From Carpediemonas membranifera BICM (lineage: Eukaryota > Protista > Fornicata), in NCBI GenBank assembly GCA_019828565.1, contig JAHDYR010000038.1, positions 1,252,552 through 1,316,551 on the forward strand: a stretch of DNA of 64,000 nt. The letters run 5' to 3'. Shown piece by piece: positions 7,701-56,737 of the stretch. Positions within the stretch are counted from its first letter, which is position 1. Each line of letters opens with the position of its first letter. Under the pieces are notes generated by a model. It made no database searches. It worked only from the letters and a program-made list of their open reading frames with translations, and had not been told where the DNA came from. Made by a program: the position numbers and the translations under genes.

Positions 7701-8056
7701 CAATCATAGTGAGAGGACACAGAGTCGAACAAAAGGACACTATCAAGCTCCTTGGCATCTGGTTTGACACATCCACATCATTCAACACGCACAACGATAG
7801 GACTTATGAGAAGATCCAAAAAGAAATTGCATGGCTCAAGTCCATCGGCATATGCCACTCCCGCTTTGTGCATCACATTGTGGAGGTTTATGTGGTGCCG
7901 AAACTGACATACGCCTGGTCAGTGTGGGCTGGCCGCAAAGCCAGACGTGCATGAGTCAGCTGGCTTCTCTTGCCCTGCGCGTCAACAACACGGCCTCGCA
8001 AGCCAAATACTTTGAGCTTGGATGGCTTCATCCCTCGGTCATGCTGCTGGCTGACA
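4796..8056 (+). pseudogene. Element A APE endonuclease and reverse transcriptase (degenerate)
   Basis: APE motifs SWNV, IQEHW, GVGFLL, MGDLN, SGH (normally SDH). RT motifs AAGADG, YRPISLLS, QYGARPG, LEIAKAFD (normally LDI), GVRQG, YMDD, KLLG. Frameshifts near 5930 and 7950. Confidence 0.85.
8042..8056 (+). repeat. 15-bp TSD of element C (TGCTGCTGGCTGACA), left copy; partner at 18435-18449
   Basis: Exact direct repeat flanking C. Confidence 0.9.
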
Positions 8057-10825: not shown

Positions 10826-11298
10826 CAGTTCACCAATGATTTCAGCAAAGTGGAAACACTTCGATCATGGATGGACAAGGACCAACAGGCCTGGCCTATA
10901 TGGATAGGGCAGTGCCCCATGGAGCTCAGAAGGAGCGGCCTTGGCCTCCTGTCTGAACATTCAAGGGTTGCTATCAGGGCATACCGCTGGGCGCGAGTGG
11001 GAGCTCCACGCCCATACCAAGGAATCAAAGTGTCTTCATGGAACGTATGTTTACAAGGAAAAGGAAAACAACCGTCGAGGGCCAGTGCTAGCACCGGCGG
11101 CTACATGGTTTTGTCAAGACCACAAGGAAGGAAGGGCAGCACAAAAGGGAAACAGGGGCCGTCGATAGAGGCTAAAAGGAGACTACGAACAAAGCAACAA
11201 CAACTACACAGAAAGGCCCCGCTACTCAGAAAAGGGCGACGCATTTTTAGGACCGCGCCTTTTTGAAAGAATGGCCTATATAGTACGGAGCATGGACA

Positions 11299-14200
11299 AT
11301 GGGAGAAACTGGAAGGCCTGGACGGAGACCTCACCCGGATATGTACATGTGGCCCGACTTTCGGACCCAAAAATTCCGACCCAGTTTATGGACTAGGAAA
11401 AGGGGAGAAATTTTGCACTCAACAATGCAGGTAGAAATACCGACAAGGATCAGGGATTCCACGCAGAAGCAGTGGGAGGACATCAGGGAACTACTGGACA
11501 GCTTCCTCGCTGAAAGGAACGATTCAAGGACTCTACTTCTTCGTAGAACAGGCAAGTTTACAGGAAAGTCGCTCAATGCGAACTCCAAAGGACGCAAGGA
11601 AGTAATCATGAACGCCAGACGCATCCTCTTCGCAACCGGCGTCACTGACAACAAGGACATCATCCTCAGGAACCCATGCGGCATCCACGGCCTCCGCGAC
11701 CTTTTCTACATGCTCACAGAGGCGCTCAACCCCAGAGACGAGGAAGCAAAGGACATGGCACAGGCACTGGAGCCCAAGACGCTGAAAGCGGGCTTCACTG
11801 GCATGGCAAGATGGCCATCTGAGAAGGACATCGAGACGGCGATCCTCAAGCCGAAGGAAGATGGGCCCATCGAATGGGATGTAGACAGGGACAGCGTCAA
11901 GAAGGCCGAAGGGTCGTTCATACTGGTATCAGGGGCTCATGGAGACGAGGCCGTAGAAGGCGTGCCTTACGACAAGGTATGGGATCCGGCAAACCAAGGC
12001 CCGGTCACCAGAGTGGCCTACGAGCAAGAGGACGGCAAGTACAGGGTCATCCTAGAGCTAAGCGACACGTCAGCATGGTCCATCAGCCGCTTCATGGAGG
12101 AGGCTAGGGACATCCTCAGGCTTCAGGCACCGGAGGCCCCGGCCATATGGCAGGCAGCATGGAACAAGTCAGGGATCTACCTGAAGGGCAGAACCAATAT
12201 CCTGGGCGAAGGGGAGGAGACCCCCCTTAGCAACGAGCCGCCGTTCCGGAAGGTGAGGCTGGAAGTGCTCAAGGCCACCTCGGTCCGCAGCAATAGGGAC
12301 GAACATGCCGATCTGGACAGGTCGTCCGCTAGCACGGTCATCGACGGAGACGAGGAGCAACATGTCAAGGACAAGGAGGAACGACGCCAGCAGGCCACCA
12401 TGCCCGGCAGAAGAAGCCTCGACGACAGCCTCCTGGAAGTGAACAAGGACATGGTCGGGGCCAACCAAGGCAAGATCGACCAGGACGAGGAGGTCGACTC
12501 AAACAAGGACAGCAGTCAGCCGCCGAGGATGCCTAGAAAGGACAAGGAGAAACGACTGGTGATCGGAGCCATCGACTTCGAGTGCGCAGACCCTGGCGTC
12601 AAGAAGGCAGGGATCCCTGCCATCCCGGTTGAGGGCGGGATCGTACTCTTTGACCTCAGCACTGGGGACATTCTTGGACACGGGCATGGCCTGTACTACC
12701 AGGACATACCGGCAGCAAGCATGGACCAAGCGAGGTACACGGCATGGGCAGTGACGGGGCTGCCGCCGGCCACCTTCGTGGAGGTCGGGACGGGGCGGCC
12801 GCCGATCGAGTATGAGAAGCACATACATACTTTCAGGGACTGGGCCAACCGCCTGGCGGCTCAGCTGGCAAGGATCGAAAGGTCGGAGGGTTGGAAGATA
12901 ATCATGTATGCAAAGGGGGTGGAGATGGAAAGCTTCCTCCTCACGAACCCCACAAATGGACTGGAGCAAGGAACCAGGGAATTCTTCCAAGCTAGGCTGG
13001 TGGACGAGAAGAAGCTACCAGAGATCCTGGAGAACAACGGCAAGGGAGGAGGCTGGCCAAAACCTCAGGGACAACCTCGACAAGGCCAACTACCTGGAAG
13101 CAGTAACAACATGGTCAAATGGATGGCAGAACAGGAGCGAGCCCAAGGGAGTCTGTCCGTACCACAGACACACCGCGGGTTGCTACCACTGTGGGTTGGC
13201 GGATACAGTAGTCTTCACAGCCAGGATCAGGGCCCTATGCAAGGAGAGGATGAGCACCCCAGACGTCTACCACTACATGGGTAAGGCACTCGACAAGACC
13301 ATGGAAGCAGTCGGGAAGGCGGAGCCGGGCATGGATATCATGGGAGGCCCGGAATTCGCGACAAGGAGGGACACCTTTGAGATCTTCGGCACGTACCCGA
13401 TCGGGGACGCAAGGGACGTCAGCAGGGAAGTCGGCGACAGGATCCTCGTAGTCCCGGACAACGGACACCGCTTCGGCATCGGCTTCGGGTTCGGGGAGGT
13501 TCTGTTGGGCATGAAGGGCATCTTACTGGCCCCCCTCACAATCATGGACAACGAAGGTGTACTGGAGAGAAGCCCGCTATGGACCATCATGGAAGAGCCA
13601 CGGCTAACCAGCTCCGCATGGTACGCGTCAGGAAGGGCCTAGGGGCAGCAAGGGAGGAGGACATCATAACCATGGCCATGCTATACGAGTGGTGGCCCTC
13701 GAAGGAGGCTACGGCTCATCAAGGAGTCTGGGGCTGCGACGACCTAGCAGAGAGCCTCAGGGACTATGAGAAGGTCATAGTCAACGTCAAGGCCCCCAGG
13801 AACAGGGGTAGGATCACCCTAGGGGCGAGCTTCATCCCGAGAGACTGGGGCATGGTCAGGGTCAGCGAGGCTGGGACCATCCTAAGCCGCATGCGCAAGG
13901 AAGGGGCCAGACTAGTCTCGGCAGCTATCCCGGACGAGCCCAGAGCCAACACAGTCAATGTCCCAGGCATCACGTATGTCCCCACCATCGACGGAAAGTC
14001 CGAACAGCCATACCAAAGTAGGTTCTTCGACAACGGCCTGGAGGAAAAGGCGAGGCGGATTAGCACCAGGATGGTGGGCAGGCACTTCGGCCAGGACGCG
14101 GATCAAGGACATCACGACCAGCATGGAGACAGGGAAGAGGACAGAAGGGTAGGACACGGAGCCGGCGGTAGAGCTGGTGTCAGAGCTGACGACAGAACCG

Positions 14201-19459: not shown

Positions 19460-22400
19460 CTATTCCACCTTGAAGCTGTTGTAAACCTTTGCCAGTTCCC
19501 GTAGTCCTGCCGTGAGGCCTTCCCAAATGTCCTCCGAGCCCCATATTATTAGTTGCTGTAATTCTAGGATGGGTCTTTCCTGGTACCATTCGCCCTGGGG
19601 GCCCTGCCTTACTTCCAAGTCCTTAGTTTTGTGCTTCGCTGCTGTCCACAGCTTTGTCCAAGCTTCTCCCCTGTCTACTGCCGGGCATTCACAGATTATG
19701 TGCGCTGCCGATCCTAGCCTCTGGCCCTCTGCCCACTCCCCTGATCATTTCCTGCTTCCTTGCTGGTCCTGGCTTTTCCCTAATGATCCTGTAGAACAGG
19801 CTCACCTCCGACTCCTCCGAGCATAGGGGGCATAGTCTGCTAATTTCTCTCTTCAGGTCAGCGCCTTGGGCCAGCTCTGTGATGGCTCTCATAGGGCCCT
19901 CCCCTCTCTCTGCCGACGATGGGGATGGGCTGACATTGGCTGCAATGGATACAATTCTCTTCCATTCCGCCCTGCTTTGCCCCTTCCCAGCCTTTCGGTC
20001 TACCGTAGGCTTACCTTGCAGACACTTGCTTAATTTCCTTGTCCCCATGATTTCCATTAGTCCTAGTGCCGTACGGCTTTTGCACCGCTTCATCCACCCC
20101 TCCTGATCGTTTCCATGCCATAATCCAGTAGCGCTGGTTTAGGGGCTCCTTCTCTGGTGCCCTCCAGTAGATGCTGCACTCTCTCCCTAGCTTCCCACAT
20201 AACCGTGCCCCGCCCCCATTCTCTGTTTCTGACTGGTATATCCTGGTCCCTGTAGTTGACTATCCTTTTGACTGCCAGCCATTCCATGTGTGCCTGGAGG
20301 TCCACCCATCCATTCATCAGCCTCATGGCTGCGCCCCCTCCCGGTCCTGTTCCTGCCATGATTCCCTGCCAGTCATTCCAGATCCTTCTACCTCCCGGTG
20401 CGTTCCCCCACACCTCGACTCCGAAGAGGATCCTGGGCCATATATATATTTCCAGTAGTAGCCTGCTCGCTAGTGCTGGCATGTTTGCCCTGGTCCACCC
20501 TGCCCATCTCACCAGTCTCTTGTACCTTTCGCTCTGCTCCTGTTTCCGCCTTATGCAGGCCGACATAGGGTCCTTCCCACTTGCGATCCATAATCCCAGG
20601 TATCTCGCCTCCTTCTCTGGCAGTAGTGTTACCCCCTCGATCCTGACTAGGGCTGTTCTGTCCACGCTAATCATTACATTCTTCTGGGCGTTCACCCTCA
20701 TTTCATGCTCTCTGATTATGTCCACCATTATGTTGGCGACCATCTGGCTATGCTCCGGTTTGCTCCCTGTGACCGCAGTGTCATCCACAAACATGGTAAG
20801 TGCTGCCGGTAGTCGGTCGCTGAGGTGGCTCGTGGTCCTTGGCGGTTCTCTGATGTCGTACCGTTCTCCCTTGATTTTTCTTTCTGGCCAGGTGGGGCCA
20901 GTTAGCCATGAACAGCACAAACAGTGTCGGTGCCAGGACGCACCCTTGCTTAACTCCCCTGTTGGTTCTTTCCCATGCCTTTGCCCCCTTGACTGATATC
21001 CAGGTTTCCTTTATTGTGCCTTGAATTGCCCTGATCAAGTGCTCCTCCACCCCCATACCCTGTAGCTTATCCATGAGAATGTCCCTTGGTACCGTGTCAT
21101 ATGCCTTCTCGATGTCCAGAAAGATTGACGTGGTCTCACCCCCTCCTGGTGCCGCTGCACAATGTACTGTATCTGCTGGATGACGTCCCTGTCTGACTGG
21201 AAACCAGCCTGTTCTCTTGGTATGAACCTTTTCGTTGCTGCTTCCAGACGTATCTTGAGCAATCTACCATAGACCCTGTACAGCAGTGGTGTCAAGGATA
21301 TTGGTCTATATGATTCCGGCTTGACCCTTGGCTTCCCTGTCTTGTGTATGGCCGACACTGTGGCATACTTCCATGCTTTGGGTACGTCGCCCTCCCTGTA
21401 GACCCTGTTGATGAGCCTCGTCACTTCCCTAAGGCCTTTCTCATCCAGCTCTCTCAGCATGTCTCCAGATGTGAGGTCAGGCCCTGGTGCGGTGTCCCTC
21501 CTGATCCTTTTGATTGCGGCTTTGACCTCGCTTTCCTTGAACTCATTTCCGTCCCTGCCCCTCCATGTCTTCCAGGTGGGTTCCCTGCCTCTGCTGACTC
21601 TAGCATACTGTTGCAAGAGGATCTCGCTGATGGCCGCCTTGTCCGTGGTTACCACTCCGTCCTTGAGGAGGCTCTCCGGCATTCCCTTGTATTGGTTGTC
21701 ACACCACCACCTTCTGATGGCAGCTTCCACTGAGGCCCTTGAGGCCCTATACCCCCTTTTTGCACTTCTGCTGATGTCGGCCACCCATTTGGCCCTGCGC
21801 TCTCCCCAGTATTTCTCCAGCTCCTCTTTCATCCTTTCCTTCCTGGTCCTGTTGCCTATTTCTGTCCATGAGGTTCGCTGGAGTTCGCTCCACACTCCGT
21901 TCCCGAACACTTTGTCCCTTGCCTTTGCTCCCCTGTTGTTCACTGGGTCGCCCATGCATGCTCTTATAGTCTCTTCCCATTGGTCCGAGCTCTTGATCCT
22001 GTTCAGCTTTGAGACTGTGACTGGCCCCTCCTTCTTTTCATGGGCCAGGTGTGCACCTCGGGTATGGCCAGAGCCACGTCTCGCTCACTTCTGCCATAGT
22101 ACCGTTGTTCCTTCCATGCTAGTGTGATTCCATTGTGTGCTGAGCCCCATACCCCGACCTTCTGAGACTCTACCACCTCAATCTCCGCCCCCTGGATTCC
22201 TGGTGTTGTCACTGCAAAGTCCGGGGTTGATGTTCCTGATGTGAGCGTCCCAGACTTGGGTATGATGGCTTTGAGCCTGTGCTTCTCCATCATATCCTTC
22301 CACCGGGTGGATCTTTCCATCTGGCCTGGGTCGATGTTCCAGTCTCCCATAATTATGGCCTCCATGCTCCCTTTCATGTCCATGATCTTCTGTATAGTGT

Positions 22401-22902
22401 CCCTGAATCCATCCTTCTCCTGCTTGCTGTGGCCGGATGGGGGGCCATACACGTTGATGACTAGTATGTCCCTGCCGGTTCTCATTATGCTGGCTTGCAC
22501 TCTTCCCGATAGGCTGTCCGATATGCCGATGTCCCACTTTGCAGTTGCGTGTGGGCTCACTATCGTGCCGATGCCTTCCCTTGTTCCCTTCCATCTTGGC
22601 GCAGGTTCGTCATTGCCTGCTATGCCTAGTTGTCGGTTGATGCGGTGCTGACTTTTGACATCCGCCTTTCGTTTTTCGTTGGCTAAGACCAGGTCCTCTT
22701 CCGTCTCCCTCCCTGCTAGTGCGTAGTCAAGGTCCATGAAGCAATGAACCCTCGTATTCGCCGTTCTCCATGTCTCTTGTATGAGTACTGCCTCTATGTC
22801 CTTCAACCTTAGCTGAATCGCCGTTGCCATAGACGCCGTGAAGTCCTTTCCTCTTCCTATGTGTCCCTCTGTGTTCAGACTAAGTATCTTGTAGGTTACC
22901 AT
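19460..22902 (-). CDS. B2 ORF2: APE endonuclease - reverse transcriptase - CCHC Zn finger
   Basis: SLNTEG, IQETW, GIG, NVYGP, MGDWN, PDF, SAH; APGPD, YRPISL, QAGF, GVKQG, FVDD, RYLG; CPLC...HIICEC. Broken by frameshifts, several of which appear to sit in homopolymer runs. Confidence 0.9.
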
Positions 22903-23232
22903 TGCCTTTGTCCTGTTTCCTTATCCTGCGAATTCCCAGAATTTGGGAGCCCCAGCTTCCCGCTCCTCTCCTGCTATCCTTGTCCTGACAAGGGGCCTAG
23001 ATGCCGGTCTCGGTGACCCTTGTCAGGCCAACCTTGTTACCACCTGGTGACCTTCCATTCTTCGGGCAGGGTACTTAGGAGGGGACGATATGACGTGACC
23101 CCCCTTTGGCTGCCGCTACAGCCTACCGGCAGTGCATTTCAGCTAATGCCGGGCCCTGGGTGGGAGCCAGGGCTTGTGAATTATAAAGAAAATGTTGCTT
23201 GTTCCTTGAAAGAATACTGCTTTACCATGTCC

Positions 23233-26200
23233 TTACTCCTCCTCCGTGGACTCCCCACTGCCGCTGCAGCTGTCCTCGGCCTGACTCGCTTGCTGTCCTT
23301 GTAGACTCTGCATTACCATGATGAACTGGGTCATCAGGTCCATGGGTGAGATCTGCTTGGCCTTCTTATCCTTCTTGTGCTTGTGCCGGGGGATCGTGGG
23401 CTTCTCCTTGCTGGGCTTAGTCGCGGCGCCGGAGAGCACCAACCTTCCGTGGCCTTGCTCTTGCATGAGTCGGGCAGCCTTGAGCGCTGAGATCTCTTGT
23501 TGCGCCTCTGCCAACTGCTTTCGGAGCCGCAGCTTCTCCGAGTCCATGCCGGTTGCCTGTCTGCTTCCAGACTCCCAGTCCATGTCCTCTTCGTGCCTGC
23601 TTCTCTTTCCGCTGTCCGAGTCCATGATCCTACTCGTGCTGCCCTCCTTGCGCTTGAGCGTCGTGGAGGAAGAGTGATCCTTGCTGTTGTCCATGCCTCC
23701 CTCTGAGCCTCTACCGGCCCAGGTGTTCCCGCTGAACGAGCCTCTCATCTGTGTTCCCGTGTTGTCCTGTCTCTCCCTGTCGTCTCCTCCGTGGTTACGA
23801 TCCGAGGTCCTGTTCATGTTACCAGCTCTGTCGCCGGTTCTGTCGTCAGCTCTGACACCAGCTCTACCGCCGGCTCCGTGTCCTACCCTTCTGTCCTCTT
23901 CCCTGTCTCCATGCTGGTCGTGATGTCCTTGATCCGCGTCCTGGCCGAAGTGCCTGCCCACCATCCTGGTGCTAATCCGCCTCGCCTTTTTCCTCCAGGC
24001 CGTTGTCGAAGAACCTACTTTGGTATGGCTGTTCGGACTTTCCGTCGATGGTGGGGACATACGTGATGCCTGGGACATTGACTGTGTTGGCTCTGGGCTC
24101 GTCCGGGATAGCTGCCGAGACTAGTCTGGCCCCTTCCTTGCGCATACGGCTTAGGATGGTCCCAGCCTCGCTGACCCTGACCATGCCCCAGTCTCTCGGG
24201 ATGAAGCTCGCCCCTAGGGTGATCCTACCCCTGTTCCTGGGGGCCTTGACGTTGACTATGACCTTCTCATAGTCCCTGAGGCTCTCTGCTAGGTCGTCGC
24301 AGCCCCAGACTCCTTGATGAGCCGTAGCCTCCTTCGAGGGCCACCACTCGTATAGCATGGCCATGGTTATGATGTCCTCCTCCCTTGCTGCCCCTAGGCC
24401 CTTCCTGACGCGTACCATGCGGAGCTGGTTAGCCGTGGCTCTTTCCATGATGGTCCATAGCGGGCTTCTCTCCAGTACACCTTCGTTGTCCATGATTGTG
24501 AGGGGGGGCCAGTAAGATGCCCTTCATGCCCAACAGAACCTCCCCGAACCCGAAGCCGATGCCGAAGCGGTGTCCGTTGTCCGGGACTACGAGGATCCTG
24601 TCGCCGACTTCCCTGCTGACGTCCCTTGCGTCCCCGATCGGGTACGTGCCGAAGATCTCAAAGGTGTCCCTCCTTGTCGCGAATTCCGGGCCTCCCATGA
24701 TATCCATGCCCGGCTCCGCCTTCCCGACTGCTTCCATGGTCTTGTCGAGTGCCTTACCCATGTAGTGGTAGACGTCTGGGGTGCTCATCCTCTCCTTGCA
24801 TAGGGCCCTGATCCTGGCTGTGAAGACTACTGTATCCGCCAACCCACAGTGGTAGCAACCCGCGGTGTGTCTGTGGTACGGACAGACTCCCTTGGGCTCG
24901 CTCCTGTTCTGCCATCCATTTGACCATGTTGTTACTGCTTCCAGGTAGTTGGCCTTGTCGAGGTTGTCCCTGAGGTTTTGGCCAGCCTCCTCCTTGCCGT
25001 TGTTCTCCAGGATCTCTGGTAGCTTCTTCTCGTCCACCAGCCTAGCTTGGAAGAATTCCCTGGTTCCTTGCTCCAGTCCATTTGTGGGGTTCGTGAGGAG
25101 GAAGCTTTCCATCTCCACCCCCTTTGCATACATGATTATCTTCCAACCCTCCGACCTTTCGATCCTTGCCAGCTGAGCCGCCAGGCGGTTGGCCCAGTCC
25201 CTGAAAGTATGTATGTGCTTCTCATACTCGATCGGCGGCCGCCCCGTCCCGACCTCCACGAAGGTGGCCGGCGGCAGCCCCGTCACTGCCCATGCCGTGT
25301 ACCTCGCTTGGTCCATGCTTGCTGCCGGTATGTCCTGGTAGTACAGGCCATGCCCATGTCCAAGAATGTCCCCAGTGCTGAGGTCAAAGAGTACGATCCC
25401 GCCCTCAACCGGGATGGCAGGGATCCCTGCCTTCTTGACGCCAGGGTCTGCGCACTCGAAGTCGATGGCTCCGATCACCAGTCGTTTCTCCTTGTCCTTT
25501 CTAGGCATCCTCGGCGGCTGACTGCTGTCCTTGTTTGAGTCGACCTCCTCGTCCTGGTCGATCTTGCCTTGGTTGGCCCCCGACCATGTCCTTGTTCACT
25601 TCCAGGAGGCTGTCGTCGAGGCTTCTCCTGCCGGGCATGGTGGCCTGCTGGCGTCGTTCCTCCTTGTCCTTGACATGTTGCTCCTCGTCTCCGTCGATGA
25701 CCGTGCTAGCGGACGACCTGTCCAGATCGGCATGTTCGTCCCAATTGCTGCGGACCGAGGTGGCCTTGAGCACTTCCAGCCTCACCTTCCGGAACGGCGG
25801 CTCGTTGCTAAGGGGGGTCTCCTCCCCTTCGCCCAGGATATTGGTTCTGCCCTTCAGGTAGATCCCTGACTTGTTCCATGCTGCCTGCCATATGGCCGGG
25901 GCCTCCGGTGCCTGAAGCCTGAGGATGTCCCTAGCCTCCTCCATGAAGCGGCTGATGGACCATGCTGACGTGTCGCTTAGCTCTAGGATGACCCTGTACT
26001 TGCCGTCCTCTTGCTCGTAGGCCACTCTGGTGACCGGGCCTTGGTTTGCCGGATCCCATACCTTGTCGTAAGGCACGCCTTCTACGGCCTCGTCTCCATG
26101 AGCCCCTGATACCAGTATGAACGACCCTTCGGCCTTCTTGACGCTGTCCCTGTCTACATCCCATTCGATGGGCCCATCTTCCTTCGGCTTGAGGATCGCC

Positions 26201-26739
26201 GTCTCGATGTCCTTCTCAGATGGCCATCTTGCCATGCCAGTGAAGCCCGCTTTCAGCGTCTTGGGCTCCAGTGCCTGTGCCATGTCCTTTGCTTCCTCGT
26301 CTCTGGGGTTGAGCGCCTCTGTGAGCATGTAGAAAAGGTCGCGGAGGCCGTGGATGCCGCATGGGTTCCTGAGGATGATGTCCTTGTTGTCAGTGACGCC
26401 GGTTGCGAAGAGGATGCGTCTGGCGTTCATGATTACTTCCTTGCGTCCTTTGGAGTTCGCATTGAGCGACTTTCCTGTAAACTTGCCTGTTCTACGAAGA
26501 AGTAGGGTCCTTGAATCGTTCCTTTCAGCGAGGAAGCTGTCCAGTAGTTCCCTGATGTCCTCCCACTGCTTCTGCGTGGAATCCCTGATCCTTGTCGGTA
26601 TTTCTACCTGCATTGTTGAGTGCAAAATTTCTCCCCTTTTCCTAGTCCATAAACTGGGTCGGAATTTTTGGGTCCGAAAGTCGGGCCACATGTACATATC
26701 CGGGTGAGGTCTCCGTCCAGGCCTTCCAGTTTCTCCCAT
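23233..26739 (-). CDS. B2 ORF1 with a Maelstrom-like DEDDh exonuclease
   Basis: Near-identical to B1 ORF1. Three +1 homopolymer slips (~25580, ~24505, ~23990) are not shared with B1. Confidence 0.8.
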
Positions 26740-27226
26740 TGTCCATGCTCCGTACTATATAGGCCATTCTTTCAAAAAGGCGCGGTCCTAAAAATGCGTC
26801 GCCCTTTTCTGAGTAGCGGGGCCTTTCTGTGTAGTTGTTGTTGCTTTGTTCGTAGTCTCCTTTTAGCCTCTATCGACGGCCCCTGTTTCCCTTTTGTGCT
26901 GCCCTTCCTTCCTTGTGGTCTTGACAAAACCATGTAGCCGCCGGTGCTAGCACTGGCCCTCGACGGTTGTTTTCCTTTTCCTTGTAAACATACGTTCCAT
27001 GAAGACACTTTGATTCCTTGGTATGGGCGTGGAGCTCCCACTCGCGCCCAGCGGTATGCCCTGATAGCAACCCTTGAATGTTCAGACAGGAGGCCAAGGC
27101 CGCTCCTTCTGAGCTCCATGGGGCACTGCCCTATCCATATAGGCCAGGCCTGTTGGTCCTTGTCCATCCATGATCGAAGTGTTTCCACTTTGCTGAAATC
27201 ATTGGTGGACTTATGCCAGCACCCAT

Positions 27227-34661: not shown

Positions 34662-34863
34662 TTATCCTTATGTAAAGCGGATTATGGTCAGCCTGGGATG
34701 ATAGGGGGTCGTGCAGAGAGTGCTCATGTCACAGCGGGCAGTCCGCATCACAGGACTCCAGGGGCCCGATGATAGCCTCTGGGTAGGCTGTTCTCATGGA
34801 ATCTGCCGAAGTCTCATGGAATCTGGTGCAGGATAATTTTGGATTCGCCCACGCACACGTGTA

Positions 34864-46614: not shown

Positions 46615-49130
46615 TCACCTGACCACGCCCATCGCAGAGTACCGTTTGTCCGGTCCAAACGCAGCCCCATCCTCAGGGTACAGCTCCTGCTCCTTCTCCA
46701 TCAGCTGTACTATTCCAAGCAGCGCCCGTGTCCGCTTCTCACCAGACGCCGCGCTGAGCACGTTGGCCTGGTCGTTCGGGGCCTCGGCGTCCACATGGAG
46801 CAGGTGGGAAATGATCTCGTCAACGGTGGCATACTGGCGACCGCCGGTCTCGTCCATGAACCGGGTCGTGAGGAACTCGTTGACGAGGCCGCGGTACCGC
46901 TCAAACGTCGCGCCGTCCAGGCTCATCGTCTCCTGTCTCGCGCGTCTGTTCGCCTGGCGTGGTGCTCTCGACCTCTCCAGGCCAAACCCAAACTCGCCGT
47001 CCTCGAGAGCAGCCGCGCCTTCGCCACCGGCGTCGCTGTCGGGCTCGACATCCCATAGTTCCTCGAGGTCGACGAGGGGCACCTGGAACGTCGTCTGGTC
47101 GTTAACGTGGATGATCGTCTGCTCGAGAAGCTCGTAGGCCTCCTCTACATGCTCTACAGTCACCGTATCGGACCCGTAAAGCTTGGCGCACGCCTGGCTG
47201 AGTCGGAAGAGGGCCTCGAGCTGGCGGGGCGTGACGTCGAGACGCATCGACGTGTTCTCCAGCTGCCGCCGACGAAGGCCGATGTACCTCTCACCGATGC
47301 GGTTGCTGGCCTCCTCCGATATCCGGACGCTGACCGTCCGAGCCCACGTGATATAGTCGCGGATCTCATCGAGGGTGTAGCTCGGGCCTGCTGCGAACTC
47401 AGCGTCGTCTGTGTGGTCGGCACCAGGCATGTGGTTGTTCAGAATGTGGTCGGAGATGCGTCTATCGTTGTCGGGGTTGCACTCATCTCTCACCACGAAG
47501 AAGAGGTCGAAGCGGGAGATCAAGGCTGGCGCGATACGTACGTTCTGTCTTAGCGTACGGGCTGGGTCGTAGAGGCCCTGGACGGGGTTCATCGCTGCCA
47601 GCACCGAGGCCCTTGAGTTGTACGTAACGTTGAGCCCGGCCTTACTGATGGAGATGGTCTGCTGCTCCATGGCCTCGTGCAGGGCTGACTGGTCGATCTC
47701 GTCCATCTTCTCCATCTCATCTATGCAGCACACGCCGTTGTCGGCAAGCATCATGGCGCCCGGGACGATGGCGAACTCGTGCGTCTGCGGGTCTTGCAGG
47801 ACGGACGCAGTGATGCCCGCGCCAGACGCGGACTTGCCCGAGGTGAACACAGCTCTTGGGTGGAAGTCCTTGACGAATGTGAGGAACTGGCTCTTTCCAG
47901 TCGACGGGTCGCCGACGATGCAGATGTTGATGTCGCCTCGGATCCTCATATCGTCCTCGCGGGTTACACCGCCGAGAAGCATGAGGATGATGGCCTTCTT
48001 GATCATCGTGTGGCCGTAAATCGCCGGGGCGAAGGACCGTACGAAGTCTGCGGTGTGCGTGGGGACGAACTGGTCAGAGTTCGGGTCCCTCATCGCCTCG
48101 AAGCGGTCTCTGCGAGGCATGTCCTTCGCGAGGGCGTCCTGGAGGGCGTCGAGGTCACTGGAGGAGGCAGTGAGCACCGTCTTCGCGTCGGGCCCCATCT
48201 CGATGTTGTTCACGAGGAAGACGTACTTGAAGGTCAGTTCTGTGGTTGCGGAGACGCCCTTGACGCCACTGATACCCTCGCCCGAGCCGCGGTCGACTCC
48301 TCTTGCGATAGAGAGGACGCCATGTTCGCCGGGCAGCTTCATTACACTAAGATCAGGGACGACAATGACCGTGCCGATGAACTGGCACGTCTGACCTGGA
48401 CGGAGGAGGCCGACAAGGTCGCCCTGCATGATGGCCTCGATGGTGGCGGGCGTCGTGCCGGGGTCGACGACAGTCGAGGGTTCCTGGAGGAGCACGCGCT
48501 GGAAGTCGACCCTTGTTGAGGCAGTCGCGTCGAGCACGAAGCCGCTCTTGGCACGGCATGCGCTATTTGTGCATATAGTGGGCAGCTTGTACTGGAACTC
48601 CTGGGCAACGTCCGGGATAGTATTGCCACACTGCTTGCACACAAAGGTGGCCGTCTTCAACAAAAGCTCGGGCTGGTTGAGACGCGTTACAGTGCCTTGG
48701 ACCGTCCTGAGCTTGTTGTGACAGTCGGACCCGAGGTCGGCCACTCGGACGCGGGGTACCTCGATCGGGAGGTTGGTAAAGCGGACCGCAAACTGGCGGG
48801 GACGGCGAGTGTTCGAGCTGAAGGCGGCATCGGCACCGTGGACATCGATGATCTTCTGCCGAAGCATATCGCCGAGGACGTCGCAGACGAAGTAGAACTC
48901 GTTCTGGACGATGAGGCTGAGATGCGCCTGTGGGTTCTCAGCTGCGTATGCCTCTACGTGATCGTAGTCGACAATAACGGCGTTTCGCTCCTTATTGGTC
49001 GCGATATCGGCAAGCTCGGCTTCTCCGATGATGTGTTCGAAGAACGGGCTCAGCACTAGTCTAAGGTCATCGAGCTGGATAAATGTGCAAGAAACGTTCA
49101 ACAAACCACCTTCTTATGTGTTCCTTCCAT
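46615..49130 (-). CDS. MCM6: Replicative helicase subunit MCM6; intron ~49075-49106
   Basis: IRGDINICIVGDPSTGKSQFL, TSGKSASGAG, IDEMEKM, SRFDL, TPRQLE and a CxxC..CxNxxC Zn finger. Exon 1 reads MEGTHKKV (an alternative donor 3 nt upstream is also in frame). Confidence 0.88.
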
Positions 49131-49291: not shown

Positions 49292-52116
49292 ATGAGTGAC
49301 GATGTTAGTAACGACGCTTTCTGCTCACATAGCCACGCCGTAGACGCTTCATTGAAGCATTTGGAGAAGAAGAATCGGATGAGGAGGTTCCTCTCGATGA
49401 GGATGAGATGGCACGCGAGCGTGCTCGCATTATGGGCGACTACGGACAGGATGAGGATGAAAGGATCGCTGGCGATAATCTTGATGAGTTCTTCGCCGCT
49501 GATTACGCCGAGAATCCCGAGCTCGACAACTACGAGTCCGAAGGTCTCGACGATGAAGTTCAGGAGCGGATCACGGCCGCGCAGGTCGCTGAGGCCACAC
49601 GTGTCATCCACGAACGTGCACGCCGCGACATAGAGCATAACAGACGGACCCCAGCAGCGCTTCTCCACATGGCCTGGCTCGACAACGACGAGGACGACAT
49701 GGAGCAGCCCGAGGGCGTCAACCGCCTCCGGCTCGTCAGCCGCGCCAACCGCGCGCTGCTGGAGCACGATCTTCCCGAGCCATCGCAGGCCGAGGAGACA
49801 ACGATCGCGACGGATCCGCTCGACGGCGGGCAGATCTCGCCCGACCACATCATCCGTCTGGCACAGTCCCTCGCTGACATCAAGGGCATGCCTATTGCAT
49901 TCTCAGAGAACCCCGAGACGCAGCAGAGCGTGTACAATCTCTTCCTGATCTTCTTGACCTTTTACCACGAGGAGAAGCGGGAGTCTGCCTTCTACCGCGA
50001 CGCTGCGCAAAGCCTCTTCAACCAGGCCGACCCATCGAGCAAGTCCCCCAGTCTGGAGGTCGACCTTTCCCACATGACGGCGATGCACGAGCTGCTTCCT
50101 GGGATTGCTGTCGTTGACGCCTGTGAGTCGATGCGCAAGCTAATCCTGACTGCGGCGCCCGCCCTCCTTCCAGTGCTCGACCAGGCGGCCACGGACTTTA
50201 TCAAGCGCAACTTCCCGCTGTATGCAAGCCTGGAGGAGCCGCGGCCGTTCAAGGTCCGCTTCACCCAGCCCGAGAACGTCAACCGCATGGGTGACCTCTG
50301 CCAAGACACCGTTAACACGCTGGTGGCCCTCGATGGTGTCATCAGTCGCAGGTCTGAGCTTGTTCCCTGCCTTGTTGAGGCCACGTTCAGGTGCCAGGCC
50401 TGTGGCGGTGACGCGGCCCCAGTCAAGGTCACTGACCGCAACAGGGTCACCCCACCCCGCGATTGCCCACACTGCTCCGCCCGCAACAAGTTCCGTCTGG
50501 AGCAGGTCGAGTCCCGCTACGAGAACTTCCGCCGCATCACCCTCACCGAGCCTCCAACAAGCGTCGAACCCGGCCGCATGCCGCTCAGCGTGGATGTGGT
50601 CTTGACAGACGATCTAGTAGACCTCGGCCGGCCCGGCGAGCTCATCACTGTCATCGGCGTCTTCACGGACAGCATCGACCCAGCCATTGCCCGCATGACG
50701 GGCTTCCCAGTGACTCGCACCGTGATCGAGGCCAACAACGTCATTTCTCCGGAAACCGAGCCCCATATCGCCGGTCTGGATGCCGAGCTCGAGCGCCTCA
50801 AGAACGAGCCGAACATCGAGCAGCGCGTGTGCAACAGTATCGCGCACACCATCCACGGCCACGAGGACGCCAAGACCGCCATCGCATGCGCCCTGTTCAG
50901 CGGCGGAAACGTCGAGGGCTCGAGCGCCACGAAGAGGGGCGACTCGCATGTGCTCCTCATCGGCGACCCGGGCCTGGCCAAGTCGCAGATGCTGATGTTC
51001 ACTAAGAAGGTCGCGCCACGCCCTATCTACACCACCGGCAAGGGCGCTAGCGCAGTTGGTCTGACCGCTGCTGTGCGGCGAGACCCGATTAGCGGTGAAA
51101 TGACGCTGCAGGCGGGCGCCCTCGTACTCTCTGACCGCGGTGTTTGCATCATCGACGAGTTCGACAAGATGTCCGAGCAGGATCGGTCTGCCCTTCATGA
51201 GGGCATGGAGCAGCAGCGCATCTCCATCAACAAGGCCGGCATCAACGCCGAGCTCAACGCGAGGTCGACCGTTGTTGCTGCTGGAAACCCACGCTTCGGC
51301 AAGTACGATGTTAACCTGCCTTTGGCCGCGAATGTTGAGCTGTCGGATCCGATCTTGTCTAGATTCGATCTCATCATCGTTATGCGTGATACAATCGACC
51401 CTGACGAGGATGCGCGGCTCGTCCGCTTCGTCGCCAACAGAATTGCCAAGGCCGGCGTAGTTGGCGCGGCGCTGCCCGTCGACGAGGAGGAGGAAGATGC
51501 CGAGGCCGAGGACAACGACTTCATCCCAGCAGACCTACTCCGGGAGTATATCGCGAGGGCCCGCACGATCGATCCCAAGATCGCGAGCAACGAGGACCTT
51601 CACAGATTCGAGGCCAAGTACTCTGAGATTCGCTCGAAGCTCGGCGGGACCCAGAACAGCCGCAACCTCAACGCCCGCCACATGGAGGCCGTCATCCGCA
51701 TTGCCAAGGCCCACGCCCGCATGCGCCTCTCCGCTGTTGTCAACCGCGACGACTCCGATTTCGCCTGGCGAGTCTTCCTCAACAGCTACATCAGCCAGCA
51801 GCGTCTCAGCGACCAGCGTGGGTTGCGGGATAGGCTGAAGGAGTACATCGTTGACGAGCGCAACGTCGAGATGGAGGTCTGGCGCGAGATCCGCGCCTGC
51901 ACCCAGCAGCTCTACGCCGTGCAGCTGAGGCAAGGCAAGACGGATTTCACCGTTCGCATCAGCCTCGAGACGCTGCGGAGGCATAACCCGCCGCTCGTTA
52001 CGAACCGCGAGCAGGCGGTGACCAAGGTGCTGAAGACGGGGAACCTTCACGGTACCGGGTACGTGCGAGAGTACGTCGACAAGAGTGCCGTCCTCGTCCG
52101 TCGCTTCGTTGTGTAG
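49292..52116 (+). CDS. MCM2: Replicative helicase subunit MCM2; intron 49304-49332
   Basis: Acidic N-terminal histone-binding region (DY..NPELDNYESEGLDD), GDPGLAKSQ, TTGKGASAVGLTA, IDEFDKM, SRFD. A 29-nt intron restores the frame from ATG 49292. Confidence 0.92.
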
Positions 52117-52167
52117 GGTACATGACATACGCCCGTAAATGTTGCGTCAATTACCATTTACATTTAC

Positions 52168-54414
52168 TTAACCAAACGTAAAGACGTCCTCGGCGAACAG
52201 ATCGTCTGAGGCAACCTTCTTGCCCGCCGACCGCGACCTTGACTGGGACCGACTCTTGCTCTTCCCTGCCTTCACCGCCACCCTCGCCTGTCTGGCAGGC
52301 TGGGCCTTAGCAGCGGCGGCCTTAGCAGCGGCAGCCTTAGGCACGCGCGCGTCATCGCGGTGGATCTTAAATCTCTGAGCGGCCTCGATCTTTGGGGGCG
52401 ACCCAGACTCTGGGCTGAGCAGGCTGACCCCGAAGTCGTGATCGCGTCGGCCCGGCAGCGGGTCCGATCTAGCCCTCTTGGTGGGCGGTTTGGAGGCGGC
52501 CTTGCGCTTGGGCCTTGGCCTGTGGGTCGGCGTGGGTTGTTGTGAGTACAGCGGCTCGACGAGCTCGTTGAGGCCGAGGGAATCGTCGTCGTACTCGTAG
52601 CCGGGTGCATGGAGGTCATTTCGCTCGAGCTGCATGCCAAGACTCTGGCTCGAGTTCGGGACCCGGCCCTGGCTGCTGTGGCGGACGACGAGCTCCGCCG
52701 TGGGCACCGCGGACGGGTCAGTCTGCACAGCCGCAGACTCTGACTCCTGCTCGGCAGTCTGGGCAGAGGTCGAGTGGGTCGGCGTGTCGACCGAGGTCGT
52801 CTGACTCACCCGACTGTGCACTTTAGGGATGTCCGTCTGGGTCGAGGCGGGGCCCGTGGGAGGCGGTCGGGCTGCCTCGAGCTGGGTGGTGAGCGCGCTG
52901 TTTGCCTCCCGGATGGAGGAGAGCTCGGCCTCGAGGACTGAGCAGCGGGTCTCGAACCTGGCGCTGGACTCGCGGATGGATTGGCCGGTGGCGTCGAGGG
53001 CTTGGGTCCGCTGGGTCAGGGTGCTCACGGCCGTGTTGGCGTGGGTCAGCTCGGTCTGCAGGCCGTCTGCCTTGGCTACTGCCGCGATGAGCTCGCCCTC
53101 GAGCGCATGGAGCTTCGTGGAGAGGGTGTTGGCCTGACACGACGCGTTGGTCGCCTTCTCCCGCTCCTCGTTGACCAGGGCGGTTGTAGCCTCAAGTCGC
53201 CGCTCGTATGTCCGCTTCATCTCTTCCGCACTGACTTCTGAGTCCCGCTTATGGGTCTCGAAGTCGGCCTGGGTGGCAGCAAGGGCTGACTCAGACTCGG
53301 TCGCTTGTTTGGTCATGGCTTCGAGCTCGGCCTCAAGGTCACTCACCCGGGAAGATAGCTCGGCCTTAACCTGCTCGAGGGTCCGCGTAAGGGAGCTGAC
53401 CTCCTTCTTCCGGCACTCCTGCTCGTGACTCAGAGCAGAGTCGGTGTCGTTGAGTCGACCCCGAGTCAAACCAAGTTCAGTCCGGACTGAGTCAAGATCT
53501 GAAGATATGGCTGAGATTTGCTCGATCTTCTCGCTAATCTGTGTGTGGGCAGTAGCGAGCTGGGATGACGTCTGCTCGAGCTGGGCGGTGGTGGACTCGA
53601 GCTTGGCGGTCGACTCGGCATGCGCGGCCTTCTCCTCGTCCAGGAGCTTGTTGAGCTCCATGCCGCGGTTTTCAGCCTCAGCGGTTGCCTCGCGTTGGTT
53701 CTCGAGCAAGCCTTCGGTGGTGGCTATGGTCTTGGCGAGCTCGGCGTGGTCGGCGGCCGCCTGTGCTTTGGCCTCATCGAGTGTGCGGCAGAGCTCAGAG
53801 ATCTGGGCGTCACGCTCGGTGATCTCTTCGCGGGCTGCGGCTGCCTCGGCTGTGAGCCTGTCGTTCTCGTGGGTCAGCCGCTCAAACCCGGCCTCGAGCA
53901 CGTCGAGCTGGTCGTCCATGGCCGCACGGCGCTCAGTAACAGCGAACATGACTTGCTCGTTGGAGGCGATGCGATCTTCCATCTCTTTGATGGTGGTCTT
54001 GGCGCAGTCGATGATTGCACGCGATGAGATGAGTTCGAACTCAAACTTCTCAAGCTGTTGGTTGCGAGAGGCAAGGGTGGTGGACAGCTGAGCCTTCTGT
54101 GTCTGGAGCGTCGTCACTGTGCCTTCGAGACGCCGGATCGTGGCAACAGCCGACTTGAGCTTCGTAGACTTGGTAAGGAAAGGAAAAGGAGGAACAAACC
54201 GAAAGCTCTGTATCTGTTTTGGCTCTCTCTTGGTCCTGGAGGAGAACTTCTACGTAAATAGTGGCGGGTAAGACGAACCAGCAGTTCTTTTCAGGTGATC
54301 ATAGCGACGCTCACTCTCCGTATCGTAAGACTTTGCCAATGGCTTAGTCTGAGTTCTTATTTGCCCGAGCGTTCGCGTCTGATTGCCAAACAGACGAGTT
54401 GAGCTCGTTAGCAT
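52168..54414 (-). CDS. 728-aa long coiled-coil protein, ZYP1/SYCP1-like; introns 54250-54278 and 54169-54199
   Basis: Exons of 136, 50 and 2001 nt give one open frame. Short head, ~450-aa coiled coil, then an S/T/P-rich basic tail ending DDLFAEDVFTFG. Confidence 0.6.
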
Positions 54415-54578
54415 CACTTTCTTTCGAGAGTCTTATCCGGCATAGACAAAACTGCGGAAAACGACTCCGCCAACAACACACGTAGTCGGAAGCCTAGCAG
54501 CAACGTGTGCCGCGTGGCCTGGCTAAATGGATATTTAGAATTACAACTTCGAATCTGAGGCTGGCGGAGTAGTGCTCC

Positions 54579-55355
54579 TCACCGCAACCTGGCGTGTGTT
54601 GGGGAAATATATGTGTTATCATCCCGCCCCCTATTGATCACAGGACGGTAGAGGTCCTCCATGTACATCTTGAAGTCAACCGCGCTGTTGGCACCCAACA
54701 TCACCACAACCCGGGGCAGGTTGTGTTTCCCTGTCTTCACGAGAAGTCTCAGCGGCCTATCGACCATATACGATGACCACTTGACCTTGTCTGAAACAGG
54801 CGTCATCTTCTCACAGTACATCTTCACGGGGCAATCGATCGAGCGCAAAACCTCGATAACTAGTCTGTCTACGTCGTCTGCATCTGGTGGATAGGGGTAC
54901 CATGTTTCCCTTTGCTTCGCAATGTCCTCCTCCGAGAGGGGCGCGACCATCTCTGACAAATGGTCGACGGCCATTTCAAACTGCCGCGTTGGCCTACCAA
55001 ACGGAGACAGGATGGTGTCTAGATCGTCTATAGCCGACTGGATCTCGATCATCCAGTCGTCTGACCGGCCTCGGTTGGGAGTTACGCGCTCTGGCGTCCT
55101 CACGCGAATCGGCGATGATGGTGGCTTTCTTGCCTTTAGCCTGGCGATTTCGGAGTCCCGTTCGCGAAGCTCCGTCTTTAACTGTGCCCTCGTTCGTATA
55201 CTATCGTCGTTATCACTCTCTAGCACCTTGATTCTCGCCTCGAGGTGAACAACACGGTGATATGCCTCTAACAGCTTCTTCAATCGGTCCCGTTCGATAA
55301 GCTTGATATTTCCATCGTCCCTAGCGTCCTGGAAGCTGTCCACATACCGTTCCAT
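54579..55355 (-). CDS. Coiled-coil protein with a C-terminal GAS2/GAR-like microtubule-binding domain
   Basis: YPPDADDVDRLV..CP...SY.V.R...VVVMLG...FKMYM resembles the GAR domain. Start assumed at ATG 55355. Confidence 0.5.
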   Translation of the reverse strand: MERYVDSFQDARDDGNIKLIERDRLKKLLEAYHRVVHLEARIKVLESDNDDSIRTRAQLKTELRERDSEIARLKARKPPSSPIRVRTPERVTPNRGRSDDWMIEIQSAIDDLDTILSPFGRPTRQFEMAVDHLSEMVAPLSEEDIAKQRETWYPYPPDADDVDRLVIEVLRSIDCPVKMYCEKMTPVSDKVKWSSYMVDRPLRLLVKTGKHNLPRVVVMLGANSAVDFKMYMEDLYRPVINRGRDDNTYISPTHARLR

Positions 55356-55495
55356 GGTGCGCCGCGGTGGTCTCGAAGTTTGACCCAGCCAGAACGCCAC
55401 AACCTGCGGTACGGCCAAGGGTTGCCTCGGTGAAGTGGGTCGCGCGTGTTAGTCCATCGGACTCTACCCAGTCCCCGATAAGTCCAAGGATTCCT

Positions 55496-55538
55496 GACCA
55501 ATCCTCCTCTACCCGACCAATCCTCCTCTACCCGACCA
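55496..55538. repeat. 19-bp tandem repeat (GACCAATCCTCCTCTACCC x2.3)
   Basis: Seen directly in the sequence. Confidence 0.85.
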
Positions 55539-55684: not shown

Positions 55685-56737
55685 TCACCACGCCTCATCC
55701 AGCCCATCACCGTAATCATTCATCTCATCCGGGTCGGGTGAGTCATGCCTCTCCTGGCGACCCAGTCGCACGAGCAGGTCCGTCTTAATTGCGTTGGTCT
55801 TCTCGTGCATAATGCGGATGGCCATCTGGACCATCTGGTCGGGCGTGAGGGCGCCTGTGCCCTCGATGTCGAGGATGAATTCGGTGGTCGACATGTCCAC
55901 GCTTACCAGGTTATTAAGGCGCGCATCGGGGAGGTCGGCAAGGCAGTTCATGCAGAAGATGCACGCGGCTTCGTCAGTGACCTCGATACCCTCACCGATG
56001 CTGCATGTAAAGACATCACGAGGGCACAGCTCAGCATAGGCCTCGAGCTGCTCGGGGCACTGGCGCACGACGTCCGTGAGGGTCTCCGGGTTGAGCTTGA
56101 TCACAGGGACACGCCGGAGTGCAATGTTGGAGGCTGGGATCCACTTGGCGTGGAGCTTGCCGGTCCCCTTGCGGGCATAGCAGGTCAGCTTCAAGCGCTG
56201 CTTCTTGCCGAGCTTCGTGATGACGATCGGGCCCTCAGAAACAGCGGGCTCGTGGCAATCCACACCTTCGCGCCATCTAAGGACGCGCGGGGCGACCGGG
56301 AAGGGTTTGGGATCAATGTCGGGGCTGTTGCCAGCGTCACCCGACTGGAAGTGGTCCTGCGTCACACTCAAGGGCTCCAGCGTGTTGGATTCTTGGTCTA
56401 CGGTGAATATGTAGCGGCACTTCTCACACCCTGAGGAGCAATCGCAGTCCCAGGTGAACTTGAGGCGATTCATGTTGTCGGCAAGGGCTCCGCTGGCAAG
56501 GGGAATGAGACCGAGACGAAGCGCAAGGATCTCATCGTCAATGGGAGACGTGTTTTCTTGGATAATCACGTCATCGACCGCGAGAGTGGGAACATCGGCA
56601 AGAATTGTACGCCTAATGGCTGAGGCAACAGCAAGAGAGGTGTTCTTCAGCCTGATGCTCATATAGTTATTTGGCTGGCCATTCGTGGTGTCCCCAAGCT
56701 GCTCTATTTGAAACGTGGTGGTGTTCTCGCCAGGCAT
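55685..56737 (-). CDS. RPB3: RNA polymerase II subunit RPB3
   Basis: AIRRTILADVPTLAVD, NTS..DEILALRLGLIPL, CDC..GCEKC Zn site, ARKGTGKLHAKW.P. Confidence 0.9.
   Translation of the reverse strand: MPGENTTTFQIEQLGDTTNGQPNNYMSIRLKNTSLAVASAIRRTILADVPTLAVDDVIIQENTSPIDDEILALRLGLIPLASGALADNMNRLKFTWDCDCSSGCEKCRYIFTVDQESNTLEPLSVTQDHFQSGDAGNSPDIDPKPFPVAPRVLRWREGVDCHEPAVSEGPIVITKLGKKQRLKLTCYARKGTGKLHAKWIPASNIALRRVPVIKLNPETLTDVVRQCPEQLEAYAELCPRDVFTCSIGEGIEVTDEAACIFCMNCLADLPDARLNNLVSVDMSTTEFILDIEGTGALTPDQMVQMAIRIMHEKTNAIKTDLLVRLGRQERHDSPDPDEMNDYGDGLDEAW

Follow-up and report, generated by a model that had tools for sequence, protein, structure and literature searches.

The window analysed here, a stretch of 64,000 nucleotides from Carpediemonas membranifera, is gene-dense and has a GC content of about 52-64 %. 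Positions 1-29000 hold degraded pieces of non-LTR retroelements, among them RVT_1 remnants at 5828-7951 and 21038-22084 and an endonuclease remnant at 22006-22920. A duplicated block also lies in this zone, the two copies of which (11284-13281 on the plus strand and 25504-26754 on the minus strand) start alike. The rest of the window consists of housekeeping genes, for a WD40 protein, a Ski2/Mtr4-type helicase, a papain-family protease, a flavin oxidoreductase, Rav1, MCM6, MCM2, RPB3, RIO1, an RCC1-like protein, an RRP8-type methyltransferase and PGM. Two further ORFs, at 34837-35532 (plus strand, 232 aa) and 35624-38644 (minus strand, 1007 aa), had no Pfam match at E 0.001. The MCM6-like gene (46618-49130, minus strand) and the MCM2-like gene (49292-52116, plus strand) lie head to head with about 160 nt between them, and each includes one predicted intron of 29-32 nt near its start. 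The gene that is the subject of this study, here called the ZYP1-like gene, is convergent with the MCM2-like gene, the two stop codons being 51 nt apart. Directly upstream of it is an ORF of about 257 aa (54582-55448, minus strand) that includes a short coiled coil and had no Pfam match above the cut-off.

The analysis confirmed the ZYP1-like gene as a three-exon gene on the minus strand, with two introns that are predicted from the sequence. Exon 1 (136 nt, 54414-54279) opens with an ATG at 54414 and would encode a short basic head (residues 1-30) and the start of a region corresponding to the alphaN region of synaptonemal complex (SC) transverse-filament proteins, including Y38 and L41. The core of the ZYP1-like alphaN motif is in exon 2 (50 nt, 54249-54200), and exon 3 (54168-52168) accounts for the remaining 2001 nt, including the stop codon. 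As a whole, the alphaN tip is distributed over all three exons. Both predicted introns, intron 1 of 29 nt (54278-54250, donor GTTCGT, phase 1) and intron 2 of 31 nt (54199-54169, donor GTTTGT, phase 0), are of the GT-AG type, and splicing out both of them results in an open frame of 728 aa. The ATG at 54414 is the first in-frame ATG downstream of an in-frame stop; a short frame that begins with an ATG at 54443, upstream of the gene, does not join the reading frame and was discarded.

Within its first 300 nt the gene has 16 GT dinucleotides, of which only the two used as donors have the form GT[AT]NGT. The same form is found in control introns from three neighbouring genes, namely PGM (29 nt), MCM2 (29 nt) and MCM6 (32 nt), which are themselves predicted, as they are needed to open the first reading frames, and have GTATGT, GTTAGT and GTTTGT among them as donors. 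When 485 models (484 open one- or two-intron models and the unspliced frame) were scored against a profile of plant ZYP1 sequences (see below), the proposed model ranked first with 34.3 bits and the next reached 25.0 bits, while the unspliced frame and exon 3 alone gave 7.7 and 4.4 bits, respectively. The introns of 29 and 31 nt that were claimed in a first-pass annotation of this DNA thus stand as predicted junctions, and the N-terminal residues quoted there were found at positions 38-67 of the spliced protein, as was the quoted C-terminal end at its terminus.

The deposited record of this gene (P0001), which is present in NCBI, UniRef, nr and EukProt, is a protein of 604 aa that begins at M125. 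It is without the whole of the diagnostic N-terminal region and scores -10 bits against the ZYP1 profile. A word-based protein search using residues 1-130 of exon 3 recovered, from 645 candidates, only this one shortened record of the gene itself. The missing front end of the deposited model illustrates how such genes escape notice.

In the predicted protein, residues 31-495 form a rod of 465 residues that includes no prolines and has a net charge of -31, and the portion of it encoded by exon 3 (residues 63-495, 52870-54168) is acidic and predicted to be helical. The rod is followed by a tail, predicted to be disordered (residues 496-728, 52168-52869), that is made up of an acidic, S/T/P-rich half (residues 496-604), a basic half with a net charge of +18 (residues 605-728) and a terminal two-part motif. 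The long coiled coil and basic S/T/P-rich tail described in the first-pass annotation are both present. The AlphaFold2 model of exon 3 alone consists of two long helices and then a disordered tail (mean pLDDT 63.8), and the predicted rod helix is broken once, near residues 294-304.

The likely 3' end signal of the gene is a pair of GTAAA words immediately past the stop codon (52156-52168). When the 3' ends of 14 genes in 29730-62283 were compared, TAAA was found 0-44 nt from the stop codon in all 14 and GTAAA near the stop codon in seven (0.38 expected), and in three the word AGTAAA overlaps the stop codon. As green and red algae use similar 3' words (PMC11529991), these signals were discarded as a possible marker of lineage.

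Metagenome contigs were searched with a degenerate pattern that represents exon 2. The fixed positions were picked with plant ZYP1 in mind, and the scan was not blind. It identified 52 loci, made up of 11 plant genomic loci, six spliced plant transcripts, 31 loci belonging to one unrelated AT-rich family and four chance matches. One of the plant transcripts encodes a full protein of 867 aa. At E 0.01, the N-terminal end of this protein matched 379 of the 923 candidates; among the matches listed (120), all are from angiosperms and many carry the name synaptonemal complex protein 1 or ZEP1. Three long fusion-like records were left out, and the ZYP1 profile was built from those of the other 117 angiosperm N-terminal ends, 108 in number, for which the motif gave an anchor.

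Residues 31-160 of the spliced protein align with positions 3-132 of this profile without a gap (28.8 bits, P 4.8e-11), and the hhalign probability for the spliced protein against ZYP1 is 93 %. Identity to plant ZYP1/ZEP1 (e.g. P0003, L015:149-2752) is about 25 % across 99 residues and reaches 48 % in the first 30 of these. The mean number of in-register identities is 24.8 of 99, and the maximum in 34 shifted registers is 13.1. These identities are concentrated, with 14.3 of 30 in residues 38-67 and 10.5 of 69 afterwards, and when exon 2 was masked the profile score fell from 28.8 to 5.3 bits. Beyond the N-terminal region, the profile comparison found no likeness to ZYP1 above that of a generic coil along most of the rod. 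The E value of the alphaN match is 1.5e-5 at the size of the PDB and 0.15, which is not significant, at 1.84 billion proteins.

Several controls for coiled-coil composition were included. Among 2000 shuffled sequences that keep the heptads the maximum was 20.8 bits, compared to 35.0 for the real protein, and plain shuffles reached no more than 9.3 bits. Reversed ZYP1 sequences (n=117) had a maximum of 7.2 bits against the profile. When 98 ZYP1 rods were used as decoys, 95 reached a maximum of 8.0 bits and the other three were high scoring only via their own N-terminal domain, which extends past residue 200. A profile search with coiled-coil filtering had been proposed in the first-pass annotation, and the match to ZYP1 stands above the coiled-coil controls used here. 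Its claim that the similarity lies at the same N-terminal position as in plant ZYP1 is also borne out, the alphaN region being equally far from the start in both, and its broader claim of homology to ZYP1 is upheld by the scores above these controls together with two introns in common and an end-anchored tail motif, described next.

All 11 plant ZYP1 genomic loci include a 50-nt exon that is preceded by AG (phase 1) and followed by GT (phase 0), and both predicted introns of the protist gene have the positions and phases of ZYP1 introns 1 and 2. The pattern used in the scan imposed no flanks on exon 2 except for one G. The 11 loci represent two lineages, the grasses and an Arabidopsis-type group, and are not 11 independent cases. 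The grass gene has three introns within the aligned part, at CDS positions 151, 201 and about 409, and the protist gene is without the third. The chance of both protist introns matching the three plant ones is 4e-5 if all sites are considered and 0.011 if only 1 site in 16 is usable. As the agreement in intron position is independent of coiled-coil composition, it is evidence beyond coiled-coil similarity. Unlike plant ZYP1, the protist gene is without any of the later introns, and its introns are 29-31 nt long, compared to 81-97 nt for plant intron 1. The introns in common with plants and the shortened public model are new in this analysis.

One of the contigs recovered in the scan carries two inverted Arabidopsis-type ZYP1 copies (L006 and L007), each with the 50-nt exon, and the text of these exons is that of ZYP1A/B as printed in PMC9957857.

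The C-terminal end of the protist protein consists of DLFAE and then DVFTFG, a two-part motif like that of ZYP1, for which the form is DLFxE...DPYAF[DG]; the elements apparently in common are DLFxE and D-x-aromatic-x-F-G/D. The gapless alignment claimed in the first-pass annotation, which holds for the N-terminal part, does not hold here, because the spacer between the two halves of the motif is shorter than that of plant ZYP1, with the middle 8 residues missing. A plain HMM built from 97 ZYP1 ends gave E 0.63 against the protist tail, which is not significant. A two-part, end-anchored test, built post hoc from 94 of the 117 ZYP1 ends after the motif had been seen, gave 20.2 bits, a score reached by 0 of 100,000 sequences in each of three nulls and by 0 of 8,755 pseudo-ends. 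Hence, the resemblance of the tail motif to that of ZYP1 is counted as supporting but post hoc. The terminal aromatic-x-Phe motif may resemble the cohesin-binding F/YxF motifs, and a literature search found no paper on a YxF motif in ZYP1.

As in plant ZYP1, the rod is proline-free and acidic and the tail is basic. However, compared to grass ZEP1, the rod is shorter (about 465 versus about 680 residues) and much richer in Ala, Thr and Ser, and the tail is longer (233 versus 147 residues). With a coiled-coil rise of 0.1485 nm per residue, the rod would be about 69 nm long, compared to 101 nm for grass ZEP1, and the complex is accordingly predicted to be narrower. The coils of nematode SYP-1 are 51-55 nm long (PMC10359014 / PMC8598163). 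As the protist rod is about two-thirds the length of that of ZEP1 yet longer than the SYP-1 coils, it would be within the working range.

Searches of Pfam, PDB sequences, Atlas and Foldseek using exon 3 or the read-through N-terminal end returned only generic coils. Because real ZYP1 is equally blank in Pfam and Atlas, we attach no weight to these negative results. The Pfam SCP-1 family was not matched by exon 3 or by the read-through N-terminal end, and the protein is not assigned to the metazoan SYCP1 subfamily that this family represents; three of three plant ZYP1 controls were also without an SCP-1 match.

A link to the animal proteins was found through plant ZYP1. When a profile of 13 ZYP1 sequences (A1) was searched against 177,635 PDB sequences, the best match was the alphaN region of human SYCP1 (6F62; 16.8 bits, E 0.044), which is gapless over 99 positions and only 0.7 bits ahead of kinesin. 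The spliced protist protein scores 28.0 bits against the same profile. Counted by eye via the ZYP1 profile, mammalian SYCP1 (6F62) and the protist protein share 17 of 99 residues, the Tyr at the tip included, and when two alignments were combined by eye L41 was in register with human L109. Here, we take the 6F62 chain to be numbered 101-206 with a 3-residue tag, in agreement with its length of 109. The alphaN motif has been reported as common to SYCP1 and Arabidopsis ZYP1, plants keep the equivalent of L109 and not that of V105, and the L106E substitution in mouse, where L106 is the equivalent of human L109, abolishes synapsis (PMC10588951). The protist protein is like Arabidopsis ZYP1 in that it keeps the equivalent of L109 and not that of V105. 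Though the first-pass annotation held that transverse-filament proteins are unrecognisable across kingdoms, this is too strong, as the alphaN motif already links SYCP1 and ZYP1 (PMC10588951). Yeast Zip1, Drosophila C(3)G and nematode SYP-1, judged by their descriptions, are alike in their head-rod-tail plan and presumed role, and are without the alphaN motif according to the available text of PMC10588951.

Taken together, the N-terminal match, the intron positions and the tail indicate that the protist protein very probably belongs, as a distant member, to the SYCP1/ZYP1 family of transverse-filament proteins. The SC is bridged by transverse filaments that lie head to head, each C-terminus being at an axis, and its width is set in part by the coils of these filaments (PMC10359014, PMC8598163). 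As the tip, the rod and the basic tail are all kept, the same role as that of the plant and animal proteins is the most likely one, and we give a probability of roughly 0.8 to the protein being a meiotic transverse filament of an SC. By analogy with the proteins of animals and plants, the rods would be parallel coiled coils, each bound to the chromosome axis via the basic tail and the acidic-aromatic motif at its end. At the midline, the rods of one homologous chromosome would join those of the other head to head via the alphaN tip around L41, and the homologues would in this way be zipped together. That the protist has an SC-based meiosis is something that we infer from homology.

The main rival explanation, though an unlikely one, is that the protein is a genuine SYCP1/ZYP1 homologue but has taken on a task outside meiotic synapsis, for example in parasexual pairing or as a linker of mitotic chromosomes or kinetochores. 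There is a precedent in the kinetoplastid kinetochore proteins KKT16-18, members of the SYCP2-3 family of axis proteins (PMC8131943). A rod that is a third shorter than that of ZEP1 and much richer in Ala, Thr and Ser would be in keeping with such a change, as would the absence of meiotic context, no other SC or meiotic gene having been found when the genes in the window were scanned. However, both functional ends, the leucine of the alphaN tip and the tail motif, appear to be retained and the head-rod-basic-tail architecture is unbroken.

It is very improbable that the protein is an unrelated long coiled coil of the centrosomal, flagellar, Golgi or nuclear-basket type with a chance likeness to ZYP1. 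The generic coils returned for exon 3 by Pfam, PDB and Atlas would fit this explanation, and so would a match that is carried by about 30 residues and loses its significance when scaled to the largest protein library. However, real ZYP1 behaves in the same way in these searches (three of three without SCP-1, and only generic coils in Atlas), and chance does not jointly account for the N-terminal position, the two introns and the C-terminal motif. The scores of the splice models and controls, the shared introns and the tail motif already largely refute it. Least likely of all, by a small further step, is transfer of a genomic copy of a ZYP1 gene from a green alga or plant, which would make the gene silent on deep ancestry: the protist protein is nearer to the plant profile than human SYCP1 is (28.0 versus 16.8 bits) and has its two introns where plants do and what looks like a tail end of the plant type, but even in the best region only about 25 % of its residues are identical to those of the plant proteins, and its GC content, intron size and 3' signal agree with those of the neighbouring host genes.

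A family member from a distant protist bears on the question of whether the central zipper of the SC had one origin, and, if it does the same job, would move that zipper back in the direction of the earliest eukaryotes. Axis proteins have been followed back as far as the last common ancestor (PMC8131943), while in the available text of PMC10588951 animals and plants are the only groups given for the alphaN motif of the transverse filament, and ZYP1 has been reported across the Viridiplantae (PMC9957857). [quoted passage not shown] If so, Zip1, C(3)G and SYP-1 would be either derived replacements or highly diverged descendants.

In the literature covered, including the available text of PMC12678776, PMC12706140, PMC13693662 and PMC10903461, there was no transverse filament of the alphaN type from outside animals and green plants; subscription journals and supplements were outside the scope, and an earlier listing is possible. 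Only low ZYP1 scores have been given for protists, with a score of 50 for the group that contains Fornicata (PMC4132317), and a tentative Zip1-like gene has been reported for Cochliopodium (10.1101/2020.06.23.166678). Free-living fornicates are reported to keep meiotic genes, though a sexual process has never been directly observed (PMC8516963); the word 'synaptonemal' is absent from the main text of that paper, the supplements of which may list SC genes. In a metamonad host, the gene would be a marker for finding a meiotic stage that has never been observed in that group, and profile searches among protists could be seeded with the protein.

The RPB3-like RNA polymerase subunit encoded upstream of the ORF of about 257 aa (55688-56734, minus strand) is also very divergent, lying at much the same distance from all four groups of subunits compared. 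It scores 115 bits against plant, 106-113 against animal, 93-105 against fungal and up to 92 against archaeal subunits, and a search recovered 22 of 3,562 candidates, with 44 % identity for the best non-self match and 30-38 % for those that are named, none of which is close. These results argue against a host among the green algae or plants, while the tiny introns, densely packed genes and strong divergence would be in keeping with a free-living fornicate metamonad. It retains a CPxxVF...CxxCxxC stretch like that in the iron-sulfur domain of archaeal Rpo3, which is absent from the aligned plant sequences and which we take to be a 4Fe-4S domain. Between this gene and the ORF of about 257 aa there is a perfect tandem duplication of 19 nt (55496-55538, 2.3 copies, 100 % match).
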